This document shows positions 2,277-33,108 of a stretch of 64,000 bases of DNA, in pieces (the stretch's first letter is position 1; every line of letters begins with the position of its first letter). Below the pieces are notes generated by a model. It was given only the letters and a program-made list of their open reading frames with translations, was not told the origin of the DNA and did no database searches. The DNA is from Desulfurivibrionaceae bacterium (lineage in GTDB: Bacteria > Desulfobacterota > Desulfobulbia > Desulfobulbales > UBA5123): NCBI GenBank assembly GCA_030145325.1, contig JAQYVW010000005.1:24749-88748 (forward strand), in the 5' to 3' direction. The position numbers were made by a program, and so were the translations under genes.

Positions 2277-3134
2277 TTATTCTTCCAGCCGTGCCAATGC
2301 TTTTTTTGCGTGTGAAAATCCCTGGCTTGCCGCCTTGCGGTACAGCGTGAGGGCCTTCTCTAGATCTTCTTTAACGCCATGGCCGTTCTCGTAGAGTGTG
2401 CCGAGGCTGTATTGGGCACCGGCAGAGCCGTGTTCGGCGGCAGTGGTGTACCATTTTAAGGCTTTTTCCATGTCGTAGGTTATGCCGCTGCCGTTTTCGT
2501 GCATGGAGCCTAGATTAACTTGGGCGGCGAGATGTCCTTGCTCAGCGGCATTACGATACCACTTGATGGCCTCGCGTTCATCTTCATTGACCCCCAATCC
2601 CTTTTTGTACATAATACCAAGGTTAAATTGGCCGCGGGGGTCACCTTTTTCCGCAGCAAGGCGAAACTGTTTTACCGCCTTGTTGTAATCCTGTGCAACG
2701 TCAAGTCCGTTTTTGTACAGCAGGCCGAGATTGACGTAGGCTGGGGCAAAATCTTGTTTGGTGGCCATTTCGTACCATTGGATGGCCGTGGCGATATCTT
2801 TCTCAACCCCACATCCTTCCTCGTACATTCGTCCAAGGTTGTACTGGCCCATGGCATCGTTTTGTTGCGCTGCCATTTTGTACCATTGGATGGCCTCGTT
2901 GCAGTCCCGGTCTACGCCGCGTCCGTTTTTGTACATGGCTCCGAGATTTACCTGCCCGCCGGCATTATTCTGCTCGGCGGCCAAGCTATACCATCTGAGG
3001 GCTTCTGCTAGATCGGAAGTAACCCCTAACCCTTTTTCATACATAACTCCAAGCTTGAACTGGGCTTGTGGATCCCCGTCTTGCGCGGCTTTATTGTATG
3101 CTGCAAAGGTTTGTTGGTAATCCTTTCGGGACAT
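2277..3134 (-). CDS. Sel1-like repeat (SLR/TPR-family) protein
   Basis: About 7 tandem ~36-aa repeats of the form G.GV..D...A..WY..AA.QG.A.AQ..LG.MY..G. Confidence 0.85.
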   Translation of the reverse strand: MSRKDYQQTFAAYNKAAQDGDPQAQFKLGVMYEKGLGVTSDLAEALRWYSLAAEQNNAGGQVNLGAMYKNGRGVDRDCNEAIQWYKMAAQQNDAMGQYNLGRMYEEGCGVEKDIATAIQWYEMATKQDFAPAYVNLGLLYKNGLDVAQDYNKAVKQFRLAAEKGDPRGQFNLGIMYKKGLGVNEDEREAIKWYRNAAEQGHLAAQVNLGSMHENGSGITYDMEKALKWYTTAAEHGSAGAQYSLGTLYENGHGVKEDLEKALTLYRKAASQGFSHAKKALARLEE

Positions 3135-3248
3135 GTCTGGTCTCAGGCTGTCAGTGATGGACAGTGATGAATTAAATAAGGTCTTTAGTTGTTTTGTCGC
3201 CCTTTACGCGGCCCCCCAGCCAAGGCGTCAAATGGTAAGGATTCTAAT

Positions 3249-3425
3249 TTACTCCTCTTCGACAATAAAATCTTTCAATTTCTCATTTAAAGATTCAGGC
3301 CATGGCAGATCATGCAAGAAAGCGTTAGCCTCTTCCTTGGTTAAAGATTGCTTTATCTCTAGGGGGAGGCTGCGCAAAAAAGCCATTCTTTCCGAGTTAG
3401 GTTTGTTGTTTTCGTCGGTGGTCAT
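3249..3425 (-). CDS. hypothetical 58-aa protein, translationally coupled to the upstream gene
   Basis: My own translation gives MTTDENNKPNSERMAFLRSLPLEIKQSLTKEEANAFLHDLPWPESLNEKLKDFIVEEE. Its ATG overlaps the TGA of the 3422..4165 gene (ATGA). It is below the 60-aa cutoff of the ORF track. Confidence 0.4.
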   Translation of the reverse strand: MTTDENNKPNSERMAFLRSLPLEIKQSLTKEEANAFLHDLPWPESLNEKLKDFIVEEE

Positions 3426-4165
3426 TGTGGCTCCTTGTGTGATGATGGTTCTGGGCTCGTGGGCATTTGCGTAGCGTCGGTCATGGCGAGGCCGGGTTCG
3501 TTATTGTTGAGCATAGAGAGATATTTACATTCTGGATAATTGGAGCAGCCAAGGAAGTATTTGCCGATATTTTCACCTTGCTTCGCCTTAAGAAGCATCA
3601 GGGGCTCGCCACAACTGGGGCAGTCACCGTATTTGTTGGTGATTATCTTGACAGTGGGGTTTTCTGGTAATTCGATATTTTTGCTAAGAATGGCAATGAT
3701 GTCTTCAGGGTCATACTGTAACCGTGATTGCACCCTGGCGATGGGTAGACCTGCTGCGGTGGCGGCGTTGTCGATAAAATCGTCCGGCATGTCCTCAGCT
3801 TTGGCGGTTGCGGTCTTATTCTCAAGGTCAATGATTCCGGCGATGGAGAGATCCCCGGCGTTACAGAGAACAAAGGAAACCGTTGTGGCGTTAATTCTGG
3901 CCAGGGTTTTAACGGGGAGTTCTTTTCCTGGCTTCTGTTGTATCTGTATGATATCCGCCAGTCGTACCTTAACGAAGACAGTGTGCCTGTCGCCAAGAAG
4001 CGGTTCCAGGGTTTCGAGAAATGCCTTTTCCGGTGCCGAAAGAAGTGAGAAGTTTTTCTCGTAAGAAAGGGATAGGTCGTGGTTACCGGCGGTCGTTTTG
4101 ATGATGATGGCGACCAGGATGATGAAGATGATCAGGATGGAGACGAAGAGAACAGATGGAGGCAC
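3422..4165 (-). CDS. membrane-anchored DUF2726-like (nuclease-fold) protein with C-terminal topoisomerase-type C4 zinc finger
   Basis: N-terminal TM helix (VLFVSILIIFIILVAIII). Central region resembles DUF2726 (LLSAPEKAFLETLEPLL...VFVKVRLADII). C-terminal CPSCGEPL...LGCSNYPECKY zinc ribbon. Confidence 0.65.
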   Translation of the reverse strand: MPPSVLFVSILIIFIILVAIIIKTTAGNHDLSLSYEKNFSLLSAPEKAFLETLEPLLGDRHTVFVKVRLADIIQIQQKPGKELPVKTLARINATTVSFVLCNAGDLSIAGIIDLENKTATAKAEDMPDDFIDNAATAAGLPIARVQSRLQYDPEDIIAILSKNIELPENPTVKIITNKYGDCPSCGEPLMLLKAKQGENIGKYFLGCSNYPECKYLSMLNNNEPGLAMTDATQMPTSPEPSSHKEPQ

Positions 4166-4422: not shown

Positions 4423-4509
4423 GCCCGGATGGCGGAACTGGTAGACGCAAGGGACTTAAAATCCCTCGGTCGCATGACTGTGCGAGTTCGATTCTCGCTC
4501 CGGGCACCA
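4423..4509 (+). tRNA. tRNA-Leu (anticodon UAA)
   Basis: 87-nt cloverleaf. Acceptor GCCCGGA/TCCGGGC; anticodon stem AGGGA/TCCCT with loop CTTAAAA; long variable arm (class II). T-arm GCGAG-TTCGATT-CTCGC and encoded CCA. Near-identical layout to enterobacterial tRNA-Leu(UAA). Confidence 0.93.
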
Positions 4510-4520
4510 CGTATTATCAA

Positions 4521-4555
4521 TGGGTTAGCGAAATTTTAGCTAACCCATTTTTTTT
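4521..4555 (+). terminator. intrinsic terminator after tRNA-Leu
   Basis: 9-bp stem TGGGTTAGC/GCTAACCCA followed by T8. Confidence 0.75.
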
Positions 4556-4902
4556 GTGGTTTTGGGTAAGCACTATGTATGCATGGTTGCGAGAAAGAAA
4601 TAATCTTTTTGACTGAGCATGTTTGGGTAGGGTGATAGTCGTCTCGATACGAAGGAAGCAAGTCGAAGAGGTTGAATGGGATTTTAAAAAAAATTCTTCC
4701 AATACCTGCGGGGTGCAAATAAAACGAACCAGCAGCGAAGCGGCGAAAGAAACGGCACCCTGTGTCACTCGCCGTGTGGTCAAGCCACATTGCTGCCCGC
4801 CCGCTCTGTGGCGGATACCCTGCGTTCCTCAAAGTTGTCGGGATAAAAAAACTCGCCCGCCTATGGGCGGCCTCAAACAGTCGGAGTTTCCGCGCTGGTT
4901 TT

Positions 4903-4985
4903 GGGAGGACAGGAGACGTTGTTTAATTGTTGAAAAAAGAGTGTTTTTCATATTCAACAATTAAACAACGTCCCCTCTGTCCCTC
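4903..4985. repeat. palindromic MITE-like repeat, copy A (both arms, short loop)
   Basis: Left arm ..GAGACGTTGTTTAATTGTTGAA and right arm TTCAACAATTAAACAACGTCCCCTCTG are inverted complements around an ~18-nt loop. The right arm recurs at 11201-11225 and 13583-13607. Confidence 0.8.
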
Positions 4986-5017
4986 ACAGCTAGAAGGCTA
5001 CTTAATACATTAGGGAG

Positions 5018-5031
5018 GTATACGTAACAAA
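5018..5031. repeat. terminal inverted repeat, left
   Basis: GTATACGTAACAAA is the exact reverse complement of 6945-6958. Confidence 0.7.
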
Positions 5032-5148
5032 TCCTATTTTTTCTTTTTAAAACAACATGTTATTGTTGTGATATTATTGTATGGTTTTCTGCATTAGTCA
5101 ATATTTTTGTGTGTCGTCCTGACTAGAACTTTCACCCTACTTATCGGA

Positions 5149-6093
5149 TCAATGCCTCCTTCTTTGGCTTATAATACTTGCCGTTTTCTCCATCACTATA
5201 TCCATGGCGTTATAATAATCTCGCTGAGCCTTAACATTTGAGAGCTTGCAATAACGTTGGGTCGTTTTTATTCTGTTATGACCTAGTAGATCCTGGATTG
5301 TGACAAGATCAGCATCTGCGTTGAGCAATTTGGTTGCCATTGTATGGCGGAGTTGATGGCAGGAAACCGATACCGCACTTTGTTTAGAGTAATATTCAAC
5401 CCGTTTTTGGATACCACGGACAGAGATCGGCTTACCTTTGTAATTCCCTTTTTCAACTAGAAATACCAGTTGTTCTCTGGTGACAGGTCTTATTTGTAAA
5501 TATGCTGCCAGGGTTTCTGCAGCATCATTGCTAAGATATACCACTCTGTCCTTAGCCCCTTTCCCACTCCTTACCATTATTTGACTACGCCTGTAGTCAA
5601 TAGCTCCCAGGGTTAGATTTGCCACCTCTTCAACTCGAAGACCGCAACGCAGCATAAGCATGAACATGGCCATGTCCCGTGGTTTCGTAATGCTCCTGAG
5701 GAAAATGACAACATCACTATCACGAAGATGCCGAGGAAGTGGTTTGGGAAGACGAAGTGCCAGTTTTTTGATCACTGGGTTAGAGATCTGAAGACCCTCT
5801 TCATCTTTCAAATAATTATAAAATTTTCGGATGGCGACCAAGTGGCTATTAATAGTCTGCGGTGACAAGCTTTTTTCGAGAAGAAAATCTATATAACATT
5901 TCACATTCCTGGAAGTCACTGATTCAACAGGAACCGCAACCCACACGATGAATTTTTGTATTCTATGAAGATAATTCCTATCTGTTTGCACGGCTAAATC
6001 CACAGAGCTTTTCGAGCTGCGGCATAACTGAACTTTTTGTTTGCATAACCGTAGAAAAGATAATCCCCGTTTGTATTTCTTACCTTTAACCAT
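5149..6093 (-). CDS. tyrosine recombinase / site-specific integrase (apparently intact)
   Basis: Core-binding SAM-like region (SPQTINSHLVAIRKFYNYL). Catalytic Arg box LRCGLRVEE, HQLRHTMAT, LLGHNRIKTTQRY with the Tyr nucleophile. The start is uncertain because the ORF overlaps the upstream ORF by 100 nt. Confidence 0.85.
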   Translation of the reverse strand: MVKGKKYKRGLSFLRLCKQKVQLCRSSKSSVDLAVQTDRNYLHRIQKFIVWVAVPVESVTSRNVKCYIDFLLEKSLSPQTINSHLVAIRKFYNYLKDEEGLQISNPVIKKLALRLPKPLPRHLRDSDVVIFLRSITKPRDMAMFMLMLRCGLRVEEVANLTLGAIDYRRSQIMVRSGKGAKDRVVYLSNDAAETLAAYLQIRPVTREQLVFLVEKGNYKGKPISVRGIQKRVEYYSKQSAVSVSCHQLRHTMATKLLNADADLVTIQDLLGHNRIKTTQRYCKLSNVKAQRDYYNAMDIVMEKTASIISQRRRH

Positions 6094-6878
6094 TTCCGTA
6101 AGGCCCTCTCTGCATCTTCTGTAAAATGTACAACTCTGCCTTGGTAATTTTTCTCCCCAAGGTAAATCAGGATTTTTTGTTCCGGCAAAATAATGTCTGA
6201 AACTTTGACATTTAACAATTCGCCGATTCTCATCCCGGTTCGAAGCAATAACAGGATCATTGCCTGGTCACGGACATTGTTGACCACAACGAGTAATGCT
6301 TCAAGGTCTTCTGCAGGGATGGCCCGGGGCAGCAACTCAGGAAGTTTGAGTTGGATTTTTTTGTCGAGAATATCAGGTTCTAAAATTCTGTGGTCAACCA
6401 GGAAACGGAGAAAGGCATATATACCCTGTAGGTTTGTTTTTATTCCGCCAACCTTTAAACCACGGTTCTGATTATTTCCTATATATGCATAAATATGCTG
6501 CCGGGAGAGTTCTTCAATGCTGCTGATCCCGGACAGCATGAGAAATGATAGAAAAGAGATAATAACGCCGCCAGACTGCCTGATAGTGCTGGTTGCCAAA
6601 TTGTTTCTATATTTATGCTGTAGATAAGAAACTGCATGCTCAGCGCCAGGCAAGCTACTGTTTGATAACCTTTGGCTGAAATGGTTAAGCACCCGACGTT
6701 TTTCTGTTGGTGCCTGAGCTACAGGTAGCGCTGTGATCGGAGAAAAATATTGAGATGAAAAATTTGTTTGTGCTTGTTGATACTCGAAAAAGGTAGGGGG
6801 ATGTTGATGGGCAGACAAGAGCCCAAGATAGATTTGTTCACTTTGATGTGGAATTGCAGCTATTTTTTCCTCGGCCAT
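5994..6878 (-). CDS. tyrosine recombinase-like protein, C-terminally truncated (lacks HxxR / H / Y boxes)
   Basis: Core-binding region and Arg box (LLLRTGMRIGEL) are present. The ORF stops (..AAARKALWI*) before the HxLRH and Tyr motifs that the downstream paralogue retains. Confidence 0.6.
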   Translation of the reverse strand: MAEEKIAAIPHQSEQIYLGLLSAHQHPPTFFEYQQAQTNFSSQYFSPITALPVAQAPTEKRRVLNHFSQRLSNSSLPGAEHAVSYLQHKYRNNLATSTIRQSGGVIISFLSFLMLSGISSIEELSRQHIYAYIGNNQNRGLKVGGIKTNLQGIYAFLRFLVDHRILEPDILDKKIQLKLPELLPRAIPAEDLEALLVVVNNVRDQAMILLLLRTGMRIGELLNVKVSDIILPEQKILIYLGEKNYQGRVVHFTEDAERALRKWLKVRNTNGDYLFYGYANKKFSYAAARKALWI

Positions 6879-6944
6879 GACCTCCTCCTTTCTAAAGAAA
6901 AACAGGATGTTATGACCGAACTATACCATATAGCCGGTTTTTAT

Positions 6945-6958
6945 TTTGTTACGTATAC
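6945..6958. repeat. terminal inverted repeat, right
   Basis: TTTGTTACGTATAC is the exact reverse complement of 5018-5031. Confidence 0.7.
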
Positions 6959-7085
6959 TAGGGAGGTATGTTGACTTCTCGATCTCTCTAAGAGAGCCCG
7001 GAACATGTCAACCTCACCAGAAGAAAGAAAAGCATGAAATCATGAACGTCCCGCTCACCTTGGTGTCCGTGAAACTGGGGGTAGC

Positions 7086-10000
7086 TCAATCTGACCCCTT
7101 TGGTTCTTCGCTTGCCAAGAGGGGGCTAGTCCGCAACGCCGCAGTGTCTTCGGCCTGTTCTGGCGACGGTGCCTGCAGAGGGCGCGTAAGTCGGCGGCAG
7201 CGAAGACTCTTCCGCGTCACCTCGATCTCCTCCGCCAATTCCGATCCGCTGTAAGCCAGCGAGGTCTCGTGGCGCGCATAGCGGCTGTCGCGACTTGCGC
7301 TGAACCAGTTGAACGAGCCAGCGCAGTAAATATCATCGTCAACGAGAATTAGTTTGCTGTGCACGCGAGCGACGAAGGCTGTTTCTATTCCGTCTTTCTG
7401 CAGCGCGTCCACCGCCGCTTGCAGCCGCAGTTTTTTTTCTGCTGCAAGGGTGGAATTCGGCGCCTCGGTGTTCCACTCCTGGTCGGTGTAGATGCTGACG
7501 CTAACGCCTCGTTTTACGGCGGCGCGCATCGCCTCTAGCGCTCCAATCTCCTTTATGCACCGCAATTGGAGCCAAGGGGTGACGATCTGTATCTCATGAA
7601 CGGCCTTGGCCAACGCGGTGAGCAGGTAGCTATCGTGCTCCTGGGCATCTCGTAGCTGACGTAAGTTCTTATGTAGCGGGGTGAGATCCTTGCGCTGCTG
7701 CGGCTCGAAATTCAATGCGTTGCTCGGCTTGTGACACAAATAGGTTAAGAGAAGCCCACGCGGTTTGGACTTCGGGGAAAGCTCGAGGACGTCCATGTCG
7801 CCGAAGACGAGGAAGCTGTCCTTGGCACGAGAGACGGCAACGTTTAGCATGCTAGGACTATTATCGATAAACTCGCCGTTGGCATGCTTAGAGTAGACGG
7901 GGGAAAAGATCACTACTGGCCGCTCGGCCCCCTGTAGGGAATGGACGGTGCCCACCGTCATTCCCTCCTTGCTACCGGCGATGATGCCTCGGGCTTGGCA
8001 GGACTGCAGGATCGCCTGCACTTGGCTGCCAAAGGGCGTGACCACGCCGACGATCTGGGCTAGCGTTTTTTCGTAACGCGTCTCTAACTCCGCCTTGTGT
8101 TCGACCAGCCAAGTGGCGATGATGTCTGCCTCCAGCAGATTCTGACGACTGCCGCCGTTGCTCCATTGACATATGCCGTCCACGTGCAGGTAGCCCATCG
8201 CCGGCAGCCCTACGCCCGCAGGACGCGAGCCGCGTTTGGGAAGGAGCTTGTTGCGATAGCACAGTTTATTGCAGTAGTCGACGATCTCGTCGAAGCAGCG
8301 TCGGTGCTCGTAGAGGAACATGCCACGGGTGAGGTCGGGGTCATAGTGATAGCGGCTGACGTTTTGCGCGATGCGCATGACACTGCCGGAGGCGGCTGCC
8401 TTACCCTGTTCGGCAAGCTGCGCGTACGCCTGCTTGGGGTCGGCGCTGCAGATGATCTTCGCACTGACCATGTTACCGATATCCACCTGTGCCGGAATCG
8501 ACCATATGGGCTCGATCTGTAGCGTGTCACCGATGACAAGCGACCTCTTGGCCAAGGCGAAGGAGGCACCCGCAACCTCTGGCAGCACCTGCCCGGCCTC
8601 ATCGACGATCAGCAGATCAATGAAATCATAGAGGTAGTCGGTAACGAATTCACCGTCATCAAAGCGCTTTACCTGCATCTCTGCCGGCAGCATAAAGAAG
8701 GTTGAAACAACGCAAGGCGTGAGCTTCATGCGTCTTCGCCAGCGCTTCTCCATCGTAACACGACCGCTCTTGCGCTTCTCCTTTTCCAATTCCGGCAGCA
8801 ACGCCTCCATCTCAAGCAGCCAGCGGCCTTCCCAATAGTGGGTCGTCAGCAAAAAAATTGGGAAGCGTATGGCGGTGTCGGCCAGTACGTCGCACTCCGC
8901 CAGCGAGAGAATCTCCGCCTGTTCCGAGATGCCCAACGGCTCCAGCGCCGCTCGCCAACGCTCCAACTGCGCCTGCTCTGCCTTAAGGACCGCCTCACCG
9001 CGTTGCACGATGTGCCGCTTTTCCCTCAGCATGGTGGCGAGCTGCTCGCGTCGAACCTGTGTCGCAGCTTCTATTTCGTCAACATTGTTCCCTCCGCGCA
9101 GCGCGGATTCGGCAGGAAAGTGCTCCTTGAGGAACAGCCTAGCAAGGCGTAGCCGCTTGTTGGCAACGGGTGGCAACCATGTGAACAGCGAGTAGAGAAT
9201 AGACTCCTTTGCAAGATAGGCCTCCCATCGCTCGACCACGGCGCCGAAGGCCTGATGCTGGGTCTCGATCTCTGCCTCCTGAAGCCGGCGTTCTGTCATG
9301 GCTGTGGCCGGATCCTCGCCGATCTCACGCTGAACCGCCTCGCGCGCAAGGACAAGTTTCTGCCAGACGTCATCAAGCGCGGTCAACTTGTCCAACTCGA
9401 CGCGGATCGCTTCTCGTAACGCCTTGACAGCATCGATGAGTGTTGGGTTTGCGATTTCGGGAAAAGCGGTTGCGGCTGCCTGGAGATAGGTACGCTTGGC
9501 GCGCTCGACGTATTCCGGTGACTCGACCTGTTCGAAGAAGGCGCGGGTCTGGTACTTGGTGGCGCTCTCGACTTCCTTGCCCTTGGCCGGGAAGTAGGCG
9601 CCGAAGCTCTGGATATCCGGCAGCCAACGACCGGCAAAGCAGCCTGAACCGATAGCAAAATCCTTGCCGAATGCGTCGATGATGTTCGTCACCGCCTGGT
9701 TGTTGGTGGACGCGGCCACGATAACGGGCGGCTCACCATTCTCATCCAGCGCCGCACGCGCCCAGAGTGAGGCAACCACTGAGAGCAGCATTGTAGTCTT
9801 GCCGGTACCCGGCGGGCCGTTGACGGCAAGGACGTCCCCATGGCGCCCCTCCAGCAGGTGAGACAGGGCGTCACGTTGAGCCTGCGCCAATGGAAAAGAG
9901 TCGCCGGCGTGACCCATACGGGCTGCGAAGGCTGCACTGGCCTGTAAGCAAGTCTCGGGCGGCGCTACCTGCTCGCTGGCGTAGCGTTCGAACAACGGGA

Positions 10001-10757
10001 CGGAGGGCACACTCTTGCGCATGTGGTCATAGAGGCCGAGGATGTGCTTACTAGCGCCTTTTACCGAGGCTCTTTTCTCGAGGTACCAGTAATTAGCCAG
10101 CTCAAAGTCGCCAGCAGTGGCCGGCCAGCCTTTGCCAACGAAATCGAACAGATCCACTGCATGGGCCAGACACCGCGACCAGAGCTCCTCTTCATTTAGC
10201 CCATGGGGGGAATCTTTGCCACCGAGGGCTGGAGTTTTGGTCAGGAAGGCATCCATATCCTCAAACGCACCGATCGTGAATGCACAACGGTCCATCGGCT
10301 CGAGTATGTCGCGCGGCATTATGGTCGTGGAGGTTGGCCGCAACCGACCGTCACGACCCAGTTCGGCCATGATCAAAAGCGGCGTCACCACATCGGGTAC
10401 ACCGGTACGTCGTCTCTGGGCGTGCTCGAGCTGCTGCAGGTAAACTATAGGACGAACGACAACCTCGATGGCATGCACATGCTCAGGCTCTTCGGCAAAC
10501 AGCGCGGCGATCTCGCTAATATCGATGTGTCCGACGCGCAGCTCATCCAGTGCCCTGCGCAGAAAGACCTTGGTCTCCCCCTCCCGCAACGCGCCGCTGC
10601 CGTGTTCGCTGTCTGCCAGGGAGTTTCGCCAGTAGGCAGCGTATGCAAGAAAGGTTTCATTCATTAGTCTTCTTCTTTTCCTCATGGTTATAGGCAACCG
10701 GGCATCTTGCCGGGAAGTGCCTTCAAGGGTAGTGGAGAGTTTGGTCTGGTTTGACAA
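7086..10757 (-). CDS. SF1 (Upf1/DNA2-like) helicase fused to a C-terminal PLD/HKD nuclease; type II Mokosh (MkoC)-like architecture
   Basis: Walker A NGPPGTGKTT, Walker B LIVDEAGQV, VGTVHSLQGAERPVVIFS and NVAVSRAK helicase motifs. One C-terminal HKD motif: HSKLILVDD...GSFNW. About 300 aa at the N-terminus have no call. The TTG start in the track is doubtful; ATG candidates are at 10685 and 10664. Confidence 0.8.
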   Translation of the reverse strand: MSNQTKLSTTLEGTSRQDARLPITMRKRRRLMNETFLAYAAYWRNSLADSEHGSGALREGETKVFLRRALDELRVGHIDISEIAALFAEEPEHVHAIEVVVRPIVYLQQLEHAQRRRTGVPDVVTPLLIMAELGRDGRLRPTSTTIMPRDILEPMDRCAFTIGAFEDMDAFLTKTPALGGKDSPHGLNEEELWSRCLAHAVDLFDFVGKGWPATAGDFELANYWYLEKRASVKGASKHILGLYDHMRKSVPSVPLFERYASEQVAPPETCLQASAAFAARMGHAGDSFPLAQAQRDALSHLLEGRHGDVLAVNGPPGTGKTTMLLSVVASLWARAALDENGEPPVIVAASTNNQAVTNIIDAFGKDFAIGSGCFAGRWLPDIQSFGAYFPAKGKEVESATKYQTRAFFEQVESPEYVERAKRTYLQAAATAFPEIANPTLIDAVKALREAIRVELDKLTALDDVWQKLVLAREAVQREIGEDPATAMTERRLQEAEIETQHQAFGAVVERWEAYLAKESILYSLFTWLPPVANKRLRLARLFLKEHFPAESALRGGNNVDEIEAATQVRREQLATMLREKRHIVQRGEAVLKAEQAQLERWRAALEPLGISEQAEILSLAECDVLADTAIRFPIFLLTTHYWEGRWLLEMEALLPELEKEKRKSGRVTMEKRWRRRMKLTPCVVSTFFMLPAEMQVKRFDDGEFVTDYLYDFIDLLIVDEAGQVLPEVAGASFALAKRSLVIGDTLQIEPIWSIPAQVDIGNMVSAKIICSADPKQAYAQLAEQGKAAASGSVMRIAQNVSRYHYDPDLTRGMFLYEHRRCFDEIVDYCNKLCYRNKLLPKRGSRPAGVGLPAMGYLHVDGICQWSNGGSRQNLLEADIIATWLVEHKAELETRYEKTLAQIVGVVTPFGSQVQAILQSCQARGIIAGSKEGMTVGTVHSLQGAERPVVIFSPVYSKHANGEFIDNSPSMLNVAVSRAKDSFLVFGDMDVLELSPKSKPRGLLLTYLCHKPSNALNFEPQQRKDLTPLHKNLRQLRDAQEHDSYLLTALAKAVHEIQIVTPWLQLRCIKEIGALEAMRAAVKRGVSVSIYTDQEWNTEAPNSTLAAEKKLRLQAAVDALQKDGIETAFVARVHSKLILVDDDIYCAGSFNWFSASRDSRYARHETSLAYSGSELAEEIEVTRKSLRCRRLTRPLQAPSPEQAEDTAALRTSPLLASEEPKGSD

Positions 10758-11228: not shown

Positions 11229-11431
11229 TAGGGAGTACGCCTGATTTTCTATGCTTGTCAGGGCCATAATATAGATCTGTCCCGGTTTTGTATTGCGATT
11301 CTCTGGAACCACTCCCTTTTTAGCTCTACCCTAACGGTCAGATTGTGCTTGACTTTGGCGCTTTGTTTTTTGGATAGTTTTGAAAGGACTCTTTTTTATT
11401 TCAATCATCCCAACCAAACAAAGGAGACAGA

Positions 11432-11686
11432 ATGACCAAAAAAGATGTAAAGAAGTTATTAGCTGGGCTTGGTATAGCGAGTCTGCTTGGCGGCTGCTCG
11501 ATGATGGGCCATGATGGACAAGCTGGTGCCAGTGGCTGAGGAAGCAGCAAAACGGGTGCAGGTAGCACCCACACTGAGATCGAAAAGGCACCTGGCAGTG
11601 GTTGAAGTGGCACCACCGATGGTGCAGTTAGCACCCAGCAAGAAGAAAACAAGAAAAAACCCGGCAGTGGCTGAGGCGGGAGTTAA
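11432..11686 (+). CDS. predicted selenocysteine-containing precursor peptide (84 aa, three in-frame UGA)
   Basis: AAGGAG RBS 5 nt before the ATG. Reading TGA as U gives MTKKDVKKLLAGLGIASLLGGCSMMGHDGQAGASGUGSSKTGAGSTHTEIEKAPGSGUSGTTDGAVSTQQEENKKKPGSGUGGS. TGA codons at 11537, 11603 and 11672 are all in one frame, each after (G/A)-S-G encoded by GSCAGTGGYTGA. No other stop occurs until TAA at 11684. SECIS-like hairpins follow each TGA, and a radical SAM/SPASM gene lies 120 nt downstream. Confidence 0.6.
11554..11570 (+). promoter_or_regulatory. SECIS-like hairpin 1
   Basis: GGGTGC-AGGTA-GCACCC. The GGTGC stem starts at +19 from the T of TGA-1. The apical loop contains GGU. Confidence 0.45.
11621..11635 (+). 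promoter_or_regulatory. SECIS-like hairpin 2
   Basis: GGTGC-AGTTA-GCACC. The stem starts at +19 from the T of TGA-2, the same spacing as hairpin 1. Confidence 0.45.
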
Positions 11687-11691
11687 TCTGC

Positions 11692-11709
11692 AAAGTGCGG
11701 TCGCACTTT
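11692..11709 (+). promoter_or_regulatory. SECIS-like hairpin 3 (extends past the TAA stop)
   Basis: AAAGTGC-GGTC-GCACTTT begins at +21 from TGA-3. No T-run follows, so it is not a typical terminator. Confidence 0.4.
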
Positions 11710-11733
11710 ATGGTAATCGCCTCAGGCAAATGG

Positions 11734-11769
11734 GGGCCAGAAGGTGTATCAACCCTTTGGCCCTTTTTT
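11734..11769 (+). terminator. intrinsic terminator/attenuator between precursor and maturase genes
   Basis: ~10-bp stem GGGCCAGAAGG/CCCTTTGGCCC (one wobble, one mismatch) followed by T6. Confidence 0.6.
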
Positions 11770-11806
11770 ATTGTTCAGACAAGAAATGTAAACTGGAATA
11801 CTGACC

Positions 11807-13432
11807 ATGGCGACAAATCAGGAGCAGAGAGATCTAGAGCAAATTTTCCCCGTCTGCCGCATGATTGTTGGGGAACAGGTCTGGCAGGAGTTACTGAGTC
11901 TTTCCCCGAAAACATCCCCGGAAAATCTGCCTGCTTTCCTTGCCGATTTCGGCCAGGGGCAGGTCGTCCCTCCTTACCTTCCTGAACTGGCAAGGCTCGA
12001 AAGGACTTTTAATAAGGCCACCATGGCCCAGGCTGATTTCAGCCGCCCGGCAGAGCGGCCAGTTTTAAATCCAACCTTGGAAATACTGGAGCTATCCTGG
12101 GAAAATCTTGCGTCTTTGCTTTTTGAGGACGCGGCGACGGACATCGCCCGGCCCGAGAAAAGTCCTGAGTGGGTGGTGGTTTTCCGGGGGCCACAGTCCC
12201 AAAAAATGCGCTGCCGGCCAGCCACTGACCAGGAACTATTAGCCCTTAAAGTTGTTGCTGCCGACTTAAACCCGGATCAGGTGGCCCTGGAAAACCACGT
12301 ACCACTCGGGGTAATTGACCGAGCTCTCAGCCATGCTGATAGGATGGGGCTGACGCTGGCTCCAGAATCCAAAATACGGAGAAACCCTGCTTTCTTTACC
12401 GGTCGCAAGGCAATGGAACAATTCCAGATCGCCCCGGTGTTCACCCTCCAGTGGCATATCACCCAGAGCTGCGATCTCCATTGTCGCCATTGCTATGACC
12501 GGAGCAGCATGATGGAGCTGGAGCTGGATCAGGGGATGGCTATCCTGGACGACTTTAAATCATTCTGCCGGAGCCGTCATGTTGATGGACATATCTCCTT
12601 TACCGGCGGCAACCCTCTCCTCTACCCACACTTCAATACCCTATACCAGCAAGCGGCGGATCTTGGTTTTTCCCTGGGCATTCTTGGTAACCCGGCCGCC
12701 AAAGAGCGAATCGAAGAGATCATGGCCATCTCTGAGCCGGTTTTCTATCAGGTCAGCCTGGAGGGGCTCCGGGAGCAAAATGATTTCATTCGCGGCCCTG
12801 GCCATTTTGACCGGGTCATTGATTTTCTTTCGATCTTAAAAGATCTGGATCTTTACTCCATGGTCATGCTGACCCTGACCGAAGACAATCGGGATCAGGT
12901 TTTGCCATTGGCAGAGGAGCTGCGGAACAAGACCGACCTTTTCACTTTCAATCGCCTCTCCCTAACCGGGGAGGGCGCGCAATTGCAATCCACCCAACGA
13001 GACGGCTTTGAGTCTTTTTTACAAGAGTATATCCAGGCCGCGAAAACCAACCCGGTTATCAGCCTGAAAGACAATCTCCTCAATATCATTCGTTATCGAG
13101 AGGGCGGCGATCTCTTCGGCGGCTGTGCCGGTTTTGGTTGCGGGGCAGCCTTTAACTTTGTTTCCCTGCTGCCGGATGGCGAGGTTCATTCCTGCCGGAA
13201 ATTTCCTTCGCCAATCGGCAATATCTTTGAGCAATCCCTGGCGGCCATTTATGACGGCCCGCAGGCTGAGCAATATCGAAACGGCCCCCAAGCCTGTAAT
13301 GATTGTCCCATCCGGCCGGTCTGTGGCGGTTGTCTGGCGGTTGGTCACGGTATGGGTATTGATATCTTTACTGAGCAAGATCCTTACTGCTTCATGTCGC
13401 AGACAGAAAGAGAGGCTGGCTTGATGCGTTAA
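11807..13432 (+). CDS. radical SAM/SPASM-domain peptide maturase with ~200-aa N-terminal extension
   Basis: CX3CX2C cluster motif in QSCDLHCRHCYD. SPASM cysteines: CGAAFNFVSLLPDGEVHSC (CX12GX4C), CNDCPIRPVCGGC and DPYC. It is adjacent to the multi-UGA peptide. Confidence 0.88.
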   Translation: MATNQEQRDLEQIFPVCRMIVGEQVWQELLSLSPKTSPENLPAFLADFGQGQVVPPYLPELARLERTFNKATMAQADFSRPAERPVLNPTLEILELSWENLASLLFEDAATDIARPEKSPEWVVVFRGPQSQKMRCRPATDQELLALKVVAADLNPDQVALENHVPLGVIDRALSHADRMGLTLAPESKIRRNPAFFTGRKAMEQFQIAPVFTLQWHITQSCDLHCRHCYDRSSMMELELDQGMAILDDFKSFCRSRHVDGHISFTGGNPLLYPHFNTLYQQAADLGFSLGILGNPAAKERIEEIMAISEPVFYQVSLEGLREQNDFIRGPGHFDRVIDFLSILKDLDLYSMVMLTLTEDNRDQVLPLAEELRNKTDLFTFNRLSLTGEGAQLQSTQRDGFESFLQEYIQAAKTNPVISLKDNLLNIIRYREGGDLFGGCAGFGCGAAFNFVSLLPDGEVHSCRKFPSPIGNIFEQSLAAIYDGPQAEQYRNGPQACNDCPIRPVCGGCLAVGHGMGIDIFTEQDPYCFMSQTEREAGLMR

Positions 13433-15481: not shown

Positions 15482-16288
15482 ATGGCATTCAAAGAAAATT
15501 TGTTGCGCAAGATAGAAGTTGACCGGCTGGCCGGTCAGGTTGCCGCATCCTGTGGCATCATCCCCGGTGCACGGCACCGGGTTGCCAAGGAGCCCATGCG
15601 CCAGCTTCTGGAGTTGAGCACCTTCCAGTACCAACGTGAACGTGACCTGGATCTCTATGTTAAAGCGGCGGAAGGGGAGCGGCAGCTCATTCTGATTCTG
15701 GACAACGAATTGCCCATCTTCCATACCACCGTCCACGATGTGGTGGTGCGCAGAAGCCCGAGAACCATTGAAATGTGGAGTTTTCGCACCATCCGTAGAA
15801 TCTTGGTCGATTCCGACATCAAGGTGAGTGTGAACGGTCAGTCAGTGGCAACAGTGCGGAAAGATGTCCTTGCCCGCATCGACCTGAGCTATACGGATGC
15901 CGACATCCACGAGCTGGCCCAGGATGGTATGGCCTGGCTCGCTGACGGCAGGGCCGAAAAGGTTGAAGAGATCCTGACCCTCTTTGCCGCCTTGCTGGAT
16001 TTGGTGCCACCGCCAAAGGGGTTCGGCCTTGAGCAGACAGTGAGCTTCGGGGTTGCCGTCTCCGGGCCGGACGATGAGGCCTACTTCGGTCCCCTGGTCC
16101 TGTACCGGCCTGCTGGCAACACCCTGGCTTGGATCGACAAACCCATGGCCAAATCAGATCGGGAGCAGATGTGTTTTCTTCGCGATGCGGCCTCGGGAAG
16201 CGCCTCGGTGTCGGTACGGGGCGATGCTGTCTTTGGCAGGCTCGCAGAAGAAGTGCTGGCCCGACCCCAGCGGGAGGTGCCTGCTTAA
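15482..16288 (+). CDS. hypothetical protein
   Basis: 268-aa ORF with host-like composition. No motif recognised. Confidence 0.55.
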   Translation: MAFKENLLRKIEVDRLAGQVAASCGIIPGARHRVAKEPMRQLLELSTFQYQRERDLDLYVKAAEGERQLILILDNELPIFHTTVHDVVVRRSPRTIEMWSFRTIRRILVDSDIKVSVNGQSVATVRKDVLARIDLSYTDADIHELAQDGMAWLADGRAEKVEEILTLFAALLDLVPPPKGFGLEQTVSFGVAVSGPDDEAYFGPLVLYRPAGNTLAWIDKPMAKSDREQMCFLRDAASGSASVSVRGDAVFGRLAEEVLARPQREVPA

Positions 16289-25127: not shown

Positions 25128-25415
25128 GATAGGACTCCTTGCTATTTTTTTGAAACCAGTTCTTATACCGTCTTTAAGGATCATTGGCAACTGTTTTGTG
25201 GGCTATTTTGTTAGTGCGCTTTTGTAAAAGACAGGATGGATGTTTTGAAGATGCTTAAGGTAATGATTGCTGGTTCGGATTCGCTGGAATTCCCCGGTGG
25301 CAATACTATTTTTAATTGACACTTGGTAAATAGGCATGGTAGCAATACCAAGGTTAAATTCTAATTCATATTTTTCTTAAATATCAATAATTTCTAATAC
25401 TAGAAAGTGTTTACA

Positions 25416-26765
25416 ATGAAAAAAACAAAGAATCCTTTCGTCAGCTTTTTCTCCTCAATGCAGTTGACACTGTTCACCTTCATTAGCTTGGCGGTGTCAT
25501 CCATTATTGGCACCATCATTCTCCAAAATAAGGAGCCAGCCTTTTATGTTAACCAGTATGGGCCGAATCTTGCCAAGATTTTCGAGATTCTTAACATTGG
25601 TGACATGTATAATTCCTGGTGGTTCTTATCTTTATTGGTTTTGCTGAGTCTTAACCTTATTGTCTGTACCATTGACCGGTTGCCCAATGTCTGGCGGATG
25701 GTGGTTCTTGACAACCTGCAAACCACCCCCGAACGTCTCGAGCGGCAGTCGCGGCGGCAGGCATTTCTGGTGGACAATGATCATGCTGGGGCGGTGGCTG
25801 CAGCCAAGGCGGTTCTCGATTCCTTTGGGAAAGGGGTGCAGCAGGCTGATCAGGAGAAAGGGACGCTTCTCTTTATCCAGAAAGGCGCTTGGACCAGACT
25901 TGGTGTTTATGTGGTACATGCCAGTATTTTGATTATCTTCGCCGGCGCTATTATCGGCTCCATATACGGACATAAGGGTGGGGTCACCTTACCTGAGGGA
26001 TCAACCACCAGTTCCATATACCAGTTTGGCAGTAATCAGCTCATTGACCTTGGTTTTGGTATTCGCTGTGATAAGTTTACCCTGAGCTTTTATGACAACG
26101 GCGCTCCCAAGGAGTACCGTTCAGACTTGACGGTTATCAAAGGTGGCAAGGAGGTTCTCAGGAAGTCCATTGTGGTTAATGATCCCCTTGATTACGGCGG
26201 TTATACTTTCTATCAGGCCAGCTATGAGCCTCGAAACGAGATGGTGGTGACCATTGCCAATGAGACCAGCGCCACCGAAAAGACATTTTTGGTGGTGCCG
26301 CGGCGCGAGGTTTCCTGGGCCAACGAAGGGGTAAGCTTTGGAATAGTAAATATTCAGGGATCCAATCGTACCGGTTATGGTTACAAAATCTGGTTTACGG
26401 ATAAACATGGCGAGCCTTCGACTTTCTGGCTTACCGAGGGGATGGCTGGGAAGGTGCAGCGGGCAGCAACCACTTATGCGGTTTCCTTGAAACGTCGTTA
26501 TGCAACCGGCCTGCAAGTTGCCAAAGATCCGGGGGTCTGGTATGTGTATGTAGGTTGTTTGGCCATGCTTTTGGGCTTGTTGGTGGCTTTTTTCCTTTCT
26601 CATCGGCGGGTATGGATATATCTTGCCAAGGAAGGTGATTCCACCCGAATCCTGCTTTCTGGAACCGCTAACAAGAACCGGATCGGTTTTGATAAAGAGT
26701 TTGTGGCCTTAGTTGAAAAAATCAGGTTGAATGACAGCCTTACTCCCAGCAAGGAAGCCTCATGA
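25416..26765 (+). CDS. resB: cytochrome c biogenesis protein ResB/Ccs1 (system II)
   Basis: N-terminal FFSSMQLT..F.. motif, large soluble domain, C-terminal TM. Overlaps ccsA (ATGA). Confidence 0.85.
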   Translation: MKKTKNPFVSFFSSMQLTLFTFISLAVSSIIGTIILQNKEPAFYVNQYGPNLAKIFEILNIGDMYNSWWFLSLLVLLSLNLIVCTIDRLPNVWRMVVLDNLQTTPERLERQSRRQAFLVDNDHAGAVAAAKAVLDSFGKGVQQADQEKGTLLFIQKGAWTRLGVYVVHASILIIFAGAIIGSIYGHKGGVTLPEGSTTSSIYQFGSNQLIDLGFGIRCDKFTLSFYDNGAPKEYRSDLTVIKGGKEVLRKSIVVNDPLDYGGYTFYQASYEPRNEMVVTIANETSATEKTFLVVPRREVSWANEGVSFGIVNIQGSNRTGYGYKIWFTDKHGEPSTFWLTEGMAGKVQRAATTYAVSLKRRYATGLQVAKDPGVWYVYVGCLAMLLGLLVAFFLSHRRVWIYLAKEGDSTRILLSGTANKNRIGFDKEFVALVEKIRLNDSLTPSKEAS

Positions 26766-27619
26766 ACAGTTCACAGCTTTTAGGTTACACCACGTTTGCG
26801 TATCTGTTTTCCACCATTGTTTATATCGCCGTTTTGGTGTTTCGAGCTAAGAAGATCAGCGTGCTTGGAACTATTTTGGCGCTGGTGGGTCTAGTGCTCC
26901 AGACTGCCGGGATCGGCATGCGCTGGATGGAGTCGTATCAGATGGGGATCGGTCATGCGCCGCTCTCGAATATGTACGAGTCATTGGTGGTCTTTGCCTG
27001 GGCCATCGTTGTTTTTTATCTCTTCTTGGAATTGAAGTTTAAAAACCGGATGCTGGGTGGGTTTGCCATGCCTTTCGCGTTTTTCAGTATGGCTTATGCA
27101 TCTTTTGCCAGCGAGATTAATCAGCAGATTTCACCGTTGGTGCCAGCGTTGCAGAGTAATTGGCTTATTGCCCATGTGGTGACCTGTTTTATTGGCTATG
27201 CCGCTTTTGCGGTGGCTTGTGGAATGGGGATCATGTATCTGCTCAAGGCGTGGCATGAGGAACGATTCTCCGCTGGTAGCGGTGAAGGGATCTTTGATTC
27301 CCTGCCACCCCTTAAAGATATTGACGATATTATTTATAAAACCATTGTTTTTGGTTTCCTCTGGCTCAGTACCGGGATCATTACCGGGGCGGTGTGGGCG
27401 AATTCCGCCTGGGGTACCTACTGGAGCTGGGATCCCAAGGAAACCTGGTCCTTGATTACCTGGTTTGTCTATGCCGTCGCTCTCCATGCCCGATTTGTCA
27501 GGGGCTGGGCTGGGAAAAGGATAGCCTGGATTGCCATTATTGGTTTTTTCTCTGTTATCTTTACCTATTATGGCGTTAACTTTCTTCTCTCCGGTTTACA
27601 TAGTTATGGCCGGGCGTGA
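26762..27619 (+). CDS. ccsA: cytochrome c biogenesis protein CcsA/ResC (system II haem lyase subunit)
   Basis: Trp-rich haem-handling motif WGTYWSWDPKETWSLITW. Multi-TM protein. Confidence 0.9.
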   Translation: MNSSQLLGYTTFAYLFSTIVYIAVLVFRAKKISVLGTILALVGLVLQTAGIGMRWMESYQMGIGHAPLSNMYESLVVFAWAIVVFYLFLELKFKNRMLGGFAMPFAFFSMAYASFASEINQQISPLVPALQSNWLIAHVVTCFIGYAAFAVACGMGIMYLLKAWHEERFSAGSGEGIFDSLPPLKDIDDIIYKTIVFGFLWLSTGIITGAVWANSAWGTYWSWDPKETWSLITWFVYAVALHARFVRGWAGKRIAWIAIIGFFSVIFTYYGVNFLLSGLHSYGRA

Positions 27620-27685: not shown

Positions 27686-27754
27686 AACACCTTAATAGTC
27701 TAATAAGTGCTTTTTTTTGTTGTTCATTTATAATTATTTTGAAAGGGGGAAAAG

Positions 27755-28123
27755 ATGAAGAAGATGATTATCTGTACCGCTGCTTTTGCCTTTGCCTTCA
27801 CCTGCGCTGTTGCTGGCGTTAGTGTGGCAGGAAATCACGGACCAGCTGAGATGACTTTGAGTGACACGGGTAAGAAACCTGCTCATTTTCCTCATAAGGC
27901 CCATCAGGATCGTTCAAAATGCTCTGAGTGTCATCATACCGATGGTACCCCCGGATCATATGTTGCTGGCAAGGAAGCCGCCTGTAAAACCTGCCACAAC
28001 AAAGATATGGGTAACAAGAAGTTGAATAGCTTCAAGAAGGTATCTCATAAAAAGTGTAAGGGGTGCCACAAAGCTCACAAGGCTTCCACCAAGTGTAGTA
28101 CGTGTCATCCTAAGAAGAAATAA
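27755..28123 (+). CDS. tetraheme cytochrome c3-family protein
   Basis: Signal peptide plus four CXXCH motifs (CSECH, CKTCH, CKGCH, CSTCH) in 122 aa. Confidence 0.85.
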   Translation: MKKMIICTAAFAFAFTCAVAGVSVAGNHGPAEMTLSDTGKKPAHFPHKAHQDRSKCSECHHTDGTPGSYVAGKEAACKTCHNKDMGNKKLNSFKKVSHKKCKGCHKAHKASTKCSTCHPKKK

Positions 28124-32145: not shown

Positions 32146-33108
32146 TTAGTGTACCTCTTGGCCGAGATAATCTTCCACTGTTTGGCGAAGCTCGGTGAAG
32201 TTTTTGCATTCGTAAATTTTTGCCCGGATGGTGCTGCCGCCATGTAAGCCCTTGAGGTATTTACCGGCGTGATTTTTAGTCTTGGCCAGCACTCGTTCTA
32301 CAGGGAAGAAGCGAGCGATTAATTCCAGATGGCGTTTGAGGGCGGTGAGTCGGCTCTGCCGTGATGGCATCATCGCTCCGCTTTTAAAAATTTGTGGGTT
32401 CCCTAAGGCGGCGCGACCGATCATCACCCCATCGCAGCCGGTTTTTTTGATCATTTTCTCCCCGTCCTCGTGGGAGAGGATATCGCCGTTACCGATCACC
32501 GGGATGGTTACCGCCTTCTTCACCGCCCGGATCACCTCCCAGTCGACTTCACCGGAAAAGCCGTCCGTCCAGGTGCGAGCGTGCACCGTCACCATGGCCG
32601 CCCCTGCATCCTCAGCCATTTTGGCAAAATCAACTGCAGTGATGGTGTGATGATTCCAGCCGGAGCGGAATTTCACTGTTACCGGCACTTGTGAGTTATC
32701 CACCACTTGGCGAATGATTTCTCCGGCCAGTTTCTGGTTCCGCATCAGGGCGCAGCCCGCGCCTCGTTTGATCACCTTTTTTACCGGGCAACCCATATTG
32801 ATGTCAATGCAGTCTGTTGCCACCATCTCGCAGAGGATTGCCGCCGCCTCGCCCATGATTTCGGGTTCGGAACCGAAGAGTTGCATGTTCACCGGTCGCT
32901 CTTCGGCCACGGTTTGCAGGAGGTCAAAGGTATTCTGTTGGCGATAGACCAGGCCGTGGCTGCTGACCATCTCTGAATAGCAAAGATCGGCTCCGTACTC
33001 GCGGCAAAGAAGCCGAAAAGCGAGATCGGTGTAACCGGCCAAGGGGGCGAGGATAAAGGGCTTGTCCAGGGTAAGAGAATTGATCTGCATAGGTATTTTA
33101 AAAGCCAA
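32146..33108 (-). CDS. dusB: tRNA-dihydrouridine synthase
   Basis: LAPLAGYTDLAFR, DINMGCP..KV, and a TIM-barrel FMN pattern typical of the Dus family. Confidence 0.88.
   Translation of the reverse strand: MAFKIPMQINSLTLDKPFILAPLAGYTDLAFRLLCREYGADLCYSEMVSSHGLVYRQQNTFDLLQTVAEERPVNMQLFGSEPEIMGEAAAILCEMVATDCIDINMGCPVKKVIKRGAGCALMRNQKLAGEIIRQVVDNSQVPVTVKFRSGWNHHTITAVDFAKMAEDAGAAMVTVHARTWTDGFSGEVDWEVIRAVKKAVTIPVIGNGDILSHEDGEKMIKKTGCDGVMIGRAALGNPQIFKSGAMMPSRQSRLTALKRHLELIARFFPVERVLAKTKNHAGKYLKGLHGGSTIRAKIYECKNFTELRQTVEDYLGQEVH

Follow-up and report, generated by a model that had tools for sequence, protein, structure and literature searches.

In a 64,000-nucleotide stretch of DNA from a Desulfurivibrionaceae bacterium (the window, analyzed here at its full length), we identified a two-gene sbtA-sbtM cassette that, judging from sequence comparisons, most probably specifies a ribosomally made, post-translationally modified selenopeptide. 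We put the probability of this reading at about 0.88. Three in-frame UGA codons in the precursor gene very probably encode selenocysteine (Sec). The gene is a typical member of the curated SbtA/SbtM family, which is already known, and it has the commonest, three-Sec form. The features of the locus are compiled in Table 1.

Table 1. Features assigned to the sbtA-sbtM locus (window coordinates)
Feature	Position	Strand	Basis or remarks
Two overlapping sigma-70-like promoter candidates, TTGACT-18-GATAGT and TTGAAA-17-AATCAT	11349..11408	+	Consensus scan only
Ribosome-binding site AAGGAG	11421..11426	+	5 nt 5′ of ATG 11432; direct reading
sbtA, putative thio(seleno)oxazole RiPP precursor	11432..11686	+	Translation, TIGR04081 N-terminus, adjoining SbtM
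Signal peptide with lipobox-like LGG|C (Cys22)	11432..11497	+	Direct reading
UGA 1, codon 36, context GASG-U-GS	11537..11539	+	TGA kept in orthologues L083 and L081
SECIS-like hairpin 1, GGGUGC-AGGUA-GCACCC	11554..11570	+	Fold -11.6 kcal/mol; best match of covariance model R1
UGA 2, codon 58, context PGSG-U-SG	11603..11605	+	TGA kept in L083 and L081
SECIS-like hairpin 2, GGUGC-AGUUA-GCACC	11621..11635	+	Second-best match of R1
UGA 3, codon 81, context PGSG-U-GGS	11672..11674	+	4 codons 5′ of TAA; TGA in L083, lost in L081
SECIS-like hairpin 3	11672..11724	+	Fold -20.2 kcal/mol, z -3.7, 0/200 shuffles as stable
Intrinsic-terminator-like hairpin followed by UUUUUU	11732..11771	+	Fold -20.8 kcal/mol, z -3.0
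sbtM, radical SAM/SPASM maturase, 541 aa	11807..13432	+	TIGR04082, Pfam Radical_SAM and SPASM

The sbtA frame runs from its ATG at 11432 to the TAA at 11684-11686 without TAA or TAG in between, and consists of 84 sense codons, three of them UGA, plus the terminal TAA. It translates to MTKKDVKKLLAGLGIASLLGGCSMMGHDGQAGASG*GSSKTGAGSTHTEIEKAPGSG*SGTTDGAVSTQQEENKKKPGSG*GGS* (asterisks for TGA and the final TAA) or, with U written at each UGA, to MTKKDVKKLLAGLGIASLLGGCSMMGHDGQAGASGUGSSKTGAGSTHTEIEKAPGSGUSGTTDGAVSTQQEENKKKPGSGUGGS. All three TGA codons are preceded by AGTGGY (the sequences directly 5′ of TGAs 1-3 are GCCAGTGGC, GGCAGTGGT and GGCAGTGGC), their nucleotide contexts being GCCAGTGGCTGA, GGCAGTGGTTGA and GGCAGTGGCTGA. 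In the peptide, the spacing from U to U is 22 and then 23 residues. Elsewhere in the window TGA is an ordinary stop codon, which ends 11 of the 34 well-identified genes, queA and proS included. An earlier note on this DNA had described the ribosome-binding site, the ATG, an ordinary ORF of 35 codons, three in-frame TGAs preceded by nearly identical nucleotides, the TAA at 11684 and the use of the standard code in the rest of the window; all these statements were verified.

It might be argued that translation ends at the first UGA, yielding a 35-residue signal-peptide-like product, and that the downstream frame is open by chance. This is the product obtained by ordinary ORF calling (11432..11539), and the 35-aa ORF is also the only form present for the contig in the public protein collection (P0121), the full-length selenopeptide being apparently unrecorded. 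Moreover, 41% of the TGA triplets in the window precede 48 codons free of TAA and TAG. Such openness is common enough that it carries no weight as evidence by itself. Nor did we find Sec machinery in the window: no selA, selB or selD was found when 37 window ORFs were scanned against Pfam and NCBIfam, and ARAGORN detected no tRNA-Sec in the 64 kb or in 60 related loci. A scan of the intergenic space of the window for TGA-interrupted frames likewise produced no second selenoprotein candidate. Against termination at the first UGA stands, to begin with, the neighboring gene, as a signal peptide devoid of cargo would make no sense as the substrate of the adjoining SbtM. The distribution of the motif AGTGGNTGA is also informative. 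It occurs just 10 times in 64 kb, both strands counted, and three of the 10 occurrences lie in one frame within 138 nt. The recurrence of this motif in one frame, each time with a family-typical hairpin, is not chance. Together with the conservation of the downstream part described below, these observations make termination at the first UGA very unlikely.

The assignment of the precursor to the SbtA family is based on its N-terminus and on its genomic position. The signal peptide corresponds to the region for which the family consensus is xxK/DxLKKxLAGxGIAxLL. The NCBIfam model TIGR04081 (SbtA family thio(seleno)oxazole RiPP precursor) matches peptide residues 1-24, scoring 32.6 bits for the 35-aa form (cut-off 30.5) and 30.3 bits, marginally below the cut-off, for the 84-aa form with U written as C. 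An HMM that we built from 22 SbtA N-termini, 21 from other loci and one from the window itself, gives the window peptide 34.6 bits. The 84-aa peptide (U as C) retrieved no match in a homology search, being a short query of low complexity. The newer Pfam family PF27804 (GSU1558_StbA-like) is assigned to the homologous small gene in L083, one of the closest orthologous loci. The lipobox-type Cys is present in about half of 76 SbtA-like peptides, the remainder having a signal peptide without it. The strong conservation of the N-terminus (xLKKxLAGxxIAxL) suggests that this region may act as a recognition leader as well. The three (A/G)SG-U-(GS/SG/GG) motifs of the window peptide also agree with the family, in which GSG is the commonest sequence before U, and SG or GG after it.

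sbtA lies directly upstream of sbtM on the same strand (it ends at 11686, and sbtM begins at 11807), an arrangement common to most of the 80 family loci that we collected. SbtM matches the NCBIfam model TIGR04082 (thio(seleno)oxazole modification radical SAM maturase SbtM) with 727.3 bits against a cut-off of 350, residues 13-529 covering profile positions 1-516 of 516. Both the CxxxCxxC cysteines (C222, C226 and C229) and those of the SPASM domain (C440, C445, C463, C497, C500, C506, C509 and C528) are invariant in 24 homologues. The nearest named relative of this SbtM comes from a Desulfobulbaceae MAG. This maturase belongs to a large, widely annotated family whose older name is 'selenobiotic family peptide radical SAM maturase'.

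An ORF of 97 codons (11511-11804, +) overlaps sbtA in another frame, and if it were the real gene, the TGA triplets would be mere out-of-frame bystanders. The ORF does exist, and similar Ala/Val/Lys-rich translations can be obtained from two related loci (L082 and L083) owing to nucleotide conservation. However, it begins inside the signal-peptide region, we noted no ribosome-binding site in front of its ATG, and the corresponding frame is interrupted in L083. The TIGR04081 N-terminus is in frame with the TGA/Cys motif and not with 11511-11804, and the Sec/Cys interchange and the module spacing discussed below are sensible only in the sbtA frame. We consider it extremely improbable that this ORF is the gene; it could nevertheless mislead gene callers.

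To see how the region behind the first TGA evolves, the sbtA reading frame was compared with the loci of the three closest SbtM relatives (L083, L082 and L081; 64-67% identity). L083 has a three-Sec architecture like that of the window (...GGSGUGSSKTGAGSTHHEEVEKSPGSGUGSNTSGAVSTEDEHHKKPGSGUGS), L082 carries four Sec, and L081 has two, since an earlier TAA removes the third module. Every indel relative to L083 and L081, either before or after TGA 1, is a multiple of 3 nt. Differences from L083 at the first, second and third codon positions number 11/4/15 after TGA 1 and 4/4/20 before it, so that the bias after TGA 1 is coding-like, yet weaker than before. Such a weakening fits a linker of low complexity on which RNA structure is superimposed. 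The earlier note had proposed examining TGA conservation or replacement by Cys codons, in-frame indels and third-position bias past the first TGA, and all three comparisons came out in its favor: the first two TGAs are kept in both L083 and L081 and the third in L083, Cys codons appear in other homologues, indels preserve the frame, and the substitution pattern, if weaker, is that of coding sequence. This persistence of downstream modules and UGA positions, which extends to the loci considered next, is hard to reconcile with termination at the first UGA.

To place the window gene in the context of its family, we used an alignment of 24 SbtM proteins to compile 80 loci in species-representative genomes, out of 581 relatives in all. 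The loci come mostly from MAGs labelled Desulfobacterota/Thermodesulfobacteriota and Nitrospirota. In most of them, the HMM of SbtA N-termini detected a gene next to SbtM that resembles sbtA, and 76 peptides were usable. Their Sec counts range from 0 to 5: none in 11 peptides, one in 6, two in 18, three in 33, four in 7 and five in a single case. Thus, the earlier note's expectation that a peptide with several Sec residues would be a rarity does not hold for this family, in which three Sec (33/76) is the commonest arrangement.

Some members have Cys in place of Sec, either throughout (L004, L018, L052, L057, L062, L064 and L066) or in mixtures of the two (L012, L014, L045 and L046). In both kinds Cys sits at the small-residue motif where other members have U, and such an interchange is what classically marks a true Sec position. 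Since the Cys forms are uninterrupted ORFs starting from the conserved N-terminus, they fix the reading frame of sbtA; as homologues of like architecture without any stop, they also speak against a product that ends at UGA 1. Several loci have tandem sbtA paralogues upstream of one sbtM (L045 2862-3818, L050 3250-3841, L053 3116-3828 and L055 3307-3960). The Sec/Cys content of such paralogues sometimes differs: L045 combines an all-Cys copy with a single-Sec copy.

Further evidence comes from RNA structure. Across the family, there are 178 UGA sites in motif context, and 154 of them (87%) have a downstream hairpin with a stem of 5 bp or more and a loop starting 19-25 nt after U (mode 23). The loop contains GU in 128 of these 154 hairpins (AGGUG, AGGUA, GGU, GUU, AGUUG, GGUC and similar loops). 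The rate of hairpins after Cys sites is 38% (n=79), with scattered positions and unrelated loops, and it is 25% in shuffled flanks. For the analysis of covariation we used an ungapped alignment of 125 hairpins from other genomes only. As the alignment was pre-selected for hairpins, the 97% of paired positions is a matter of construction, but the variety of pair types is not. The stems occur as GGUGC/GCACC, AGUGC/GCACU, GGCGC/GCGCC, GACGC/GCGUC and GGUAC/GUACC, and there are 153 doubly changed cells compared with 44 in shuffles, none of 500 shuffles reaching as high a value. The encoded amino acids change along with the stems (G/S/D ... T/A/V), which indicates a constraint at the RNA level.

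All three UGA codons of the window are associated with such hairpins. Hairpin 1, which codes for GAGST and is nearly identical in L083 and L081, has a loop that begins 23 nt past the U of UGA 1. In hairpin 2, which encodes GAVST, the loop likewise begins 23 nt past UGA 2, and the L081 counterpart is GGUAC/GUACC, a compensatory change from G-C to A-U. Hairpin 2 differs from the minimum-free-energy fold of the isolated segment, and the z-scores of the hairpins at sites 1 and 2 against shuffles are modest. Hairpin 3 is of a different kind. Its long stem begins at UGA 3 itself, and most of the structure is located past the TAA, in the 3′ untranslated region. The apex is AAAGUGC-GGUC-GCACUUU (11692-11709), while in the lower stem UGAGGCGG pairs with CGCCUCA. 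The core of this hairpin, AGTGCGGTCGCACT, is a 14-mer of which six other loci contain 8 identical copies, and all 8 are located just 3′ of the SbtA stop codon, after the last UGA.

We also asked whether hairpins of other genomes would point to the same sites. The covariance model R1 was built from those hairpins with the window sequences excluded and with the 4-nt GGUC-loop type left out, and both strands of the 64 kb were searched with it, the filters being disabled. The best match of R1 in the window (11549-11575, 30.5 bits, E 2.7e-6) is the hairpin after TGA 1, and the second-best (11615-11641, 23.3 bits, E 3.4e-4) is the hairpin after TGA 2. Such a ranking would not be expected if the sequence behind UGA 1 were open by accident. 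Two weaker matches (15560-15584 and 32743-32769, minus strand) were rejected as chance ones, being inside ordinary genes and lacking a suitably spaced in-frame TGA. Searches of Rfam 15, with gathering scores over the window and with permissive E-values over 11380-11820, returned only noise and no SECIS family.

The earlier note's proposal of local recoding of the three UGAs to Sec is therefore the best-supported one, resting on Cys homologues, hairpins at the family-typical distance, conserved UGAs and in-frame indels. As to the host, the intact UGA-hairpin modules suggest that this Desulfurivibrionaceae bacterium is able to insert Sec. One may alternatively suppose that sbtA is a decaying relic of a Cys- or Sec-type gene in a genome that has lost Sec decoding, the UGAs now being plain stops. 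Module loss does occur in the family, the third module of L081 having been lost through a premature TAA. In the window, however, each of the three UGAs still has an intact hairpin of the family type, and for the first two the spacing is conserved as well. The sbtA frame has acquired neither TAA or TAG nor a frameshift, sbtM is intact and of full length, and both the ribosome-binding site and the terminator are preserved. Decay thus appears very improbable, and a functional selenopeptide gene remains our preferred reading.

The hairpins seem to have left an imprint on the peptide. The residues recurring after each U (GAGST, GAGGT and SAVST) are the translation of the hairpin. The median distance to the next module is 21 residues after Sec and 8 after Cys, so the 22 and 23 residues of the window peptide are typical. 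The spacing of the modules is thus what the hairpins demand. All-Cys variants have no GAGST-type spacers; L018, for example, is an all-Cys peptide with seven TSCSG-type repeats. Because the all-Cys relatives drop the spacers and pack their modules tightly, we read the spacers of the Sec forms (GAGST and GAVST) as hairpin-driven, which suggests that they are dictated by RNA hairpins and not by peptide function. No statement of this idea was found in the accessible literature. Such packing was observed in L018 (1429-1668), L064 (3564-3959) and L004 (1823-2050), all-Cys peptides that have up to 7-11 (T/S)(S/G)C(S/G)G motifs, 5-6 residues apart at minimum.

Deviating arrangements of UGA codons and hairpins were also encountered. 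Pairs of UGAs only 3-7 codons apart are found in L005 (817-1065), L008 (32-280), L009 (3560-3799), L038 (2916-3122) and L070 (3538-3873). Such close pairs (for example, TSUSGKTSUSGETGAGGT) have a single hairpin after the second UGA, the first UGA being about 33 nt or more from the loop, and this raises the question of whether one SECIS can serve two UGA codons. In five loci from Nitrospirota MAGs (L022, L024, L027, L050 and L053, with SbtA genes at about 3100-3860) the canonical hairpin is missing from the internal UGAs; the last UGA alone is followed by one (AGTGCGGTCGCACT), immediately 3′ of the stop. In L014 and L023, the stem takes in the UGA itself. The Nitrospirota-MAG loci as well as L014 and L023 may represent a different or shared SECIS arrangement.

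The SbtA/SbtM system was predicted by Haft & Basu 2011, and Lewis et al. 2021 characterised the SbtM enzyme from Geobacter lovleyi (the two studies as cited in PMC9204691 and PMC11002830). SbtM turns the Cys or SeCys of a Gly-Cys/SeCys motif into a thio(seleno)oxazole (PMC9204691, PMC11002830). This chemistry has been shown only in vitro, with the G. lovleyi enzyme and a minimal peptide, and the natural SbtA precursor is stated to be longer than first annotated, with at least two SeCys (PMC9204691). The window locus shares with this system (TIGR04081/TIGR04082) a small precursor with a conserved N-terminus directly 5′ of an SbtM-equivalog radical SAM/SPASM maturase, UGAs within a Gly/Ser-rich motif, a SECIS element immediately 3′ and more than one Sec per peptide. 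The differences are minor. The window motif is GSG-U-G/S, whereas the general motif given in the review is GGUG (PMC9204691); GSG is the commonest in our survey. The window peptide has three Sec, the review stating 'at least two' (PMC9204691). There is no essential difference between the two.

Two more distant comparisons can be made. Of the known bacterial elements, the SECIS of E. coli fdhF is a hairpin shortly 3′ of the UGA with G-U in its apical loop. The window hairpins resemble this fdhF-type SECIS/SelB arrangement in both respects, G-U being present in the loops of hairpin 1 (AGGUA), hairpin 2 (AGUUA) and hairpin 3 (GGUC). In contrast to the fdhF type, the window stems are short (5-7 bp), three elements are contained in one gene of 255 nt, the third of them lies mostly in the 3′ untranslated region, and none matches an Rfam family. 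Eukaryotic selenoprotein P is similar in that several Sec are derived from in-frame UGAs of one polypeptide. According to PMC8266573, two SECIS elements in its 3′ UTR serve all UGAs, whereas in the window there is a local hairpin for each UGA; fold and function differ as well, and there is no homology.

Based on these considerations, the following scheme can be proposed. sbtA would be translated through its three UGAs, with Sec inserted in place of termination. A short GGU/GUU-loop hairpin about 20 nt 3′ of each UGA would recruit SelB carrying Sec-tRNA(Sec), the third hairpin working from beyond the stop codon. The predicted 84-residue product would consist of the signal peptide with its lipobox-like Cys22 and three (A/G)SG-U-(G/S)(S/G) modules separated by spacers whose sequence (GAGST, GAVST) may largely be an imprint of the hairpins on the coding sequence. 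As expected from its Geobacter lovleyi homologue, SbtM would abstract hydrogen from the Sec beta-carbon and oxidise each Sec together with the carbonyl of the preceding residue to a selenooxazole, with a loss of 4 Da per site (PMC9204691, PMC11002830). The modified peptide would then be exported and, in the Desulfurivibrionaceae host, probably lipid-anchored. The comparisons demonstrate the frame, the family membership, the exchange of Sec and Cys among homologues, the hairpins with their covariation and the conserved UGAs; Sec insertion in this host, the chemistry at the three sites, the export and the lipidation are inferred.

The yield of such a process deserves consideration. Sec insertion is inefficient in the bacteria studied; the low efficiency of UGA-Sec decoding is known from E. 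coli fdhF reporter work. Given such inefficiency, three successive UGAs may give mostly truncated products. The cell might thus contain products with 0, 1 or 2 Sec along with the full-length one with 3 Sec, a scenario that would modify the proposed scheme without replacing it. As the family tolerates 1-5 modules, the shorter products could remain substrates of SbtM. On the other hand, three is the commonest number of Sec and the C-terminal module is kept in L083, which argues for selection on the full-length product. On balance, we regard a mixture of this kind as less likely than not.

The expression of the two genes might be uneven. The terminator-like hairpin at 11732-11771 separates sbtA from sbtM and was missed by a simple terminator scan because of its long loop; a T-run and a hairpin are also present at the sbtA-sbtM junction of L083 and L081. 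Such an arrangement is common where a precursor is over-expressed relative to its maturase, and the same may apply here. We looked for a conserved third gene, such as a protease or an exporter, around sbtAM and found none, SbtM being the sole cluster common to all of the 83 loci searched; those ranking next are either antisense artefacts or present in at most 13 of the 83.

A few neighboring features of the window may be mentioned in their own right. The stretch directly upstream of sbtA (4423-10757) looks like an integrated island with a defence-type gene. It starts with tRNA-Leu(taa) at 4423-4509, and then come two genes for tyrosine recombinases (5149-6878, minus strand). The remaining part (7086-10757, minus strand) codes for a 1223-aa protein that combines a helicase domain with a PLD/NucT-like nuclease at the C-terminus and weakly matches the anti-phage helicase families PLuB and ProA. 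Further away, at 25407-27619, there are the cytochrome c biogenesis genes ResB and CcsA, and 3′ of them a small CxxCH-rich ORF (about 27752-28120, plus strand), probably a small multihaem cytochrome c.

To our knowledge, no SbtA product has been isolated from cells. Tentatively, the mature product may be pictured as an exported lipid-anchored peptide with three selenooxazole rings, a selenium-based natural product active in redox chemistry or metal binding, even if in this complete form the picture is doubtful. The locus adds little biology, since the family is curated, the enzyme chemistry is published and the three-Sec precursor is the commonest form. For family-wide questions, namely the product in vivo, its function and the efficiency of decoding serial UGAs, it is no more tractable than hundreds of others. 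Its value lies in annotation: here ordinary gene callers have cut a selenopeptide gene down to 35 codons.
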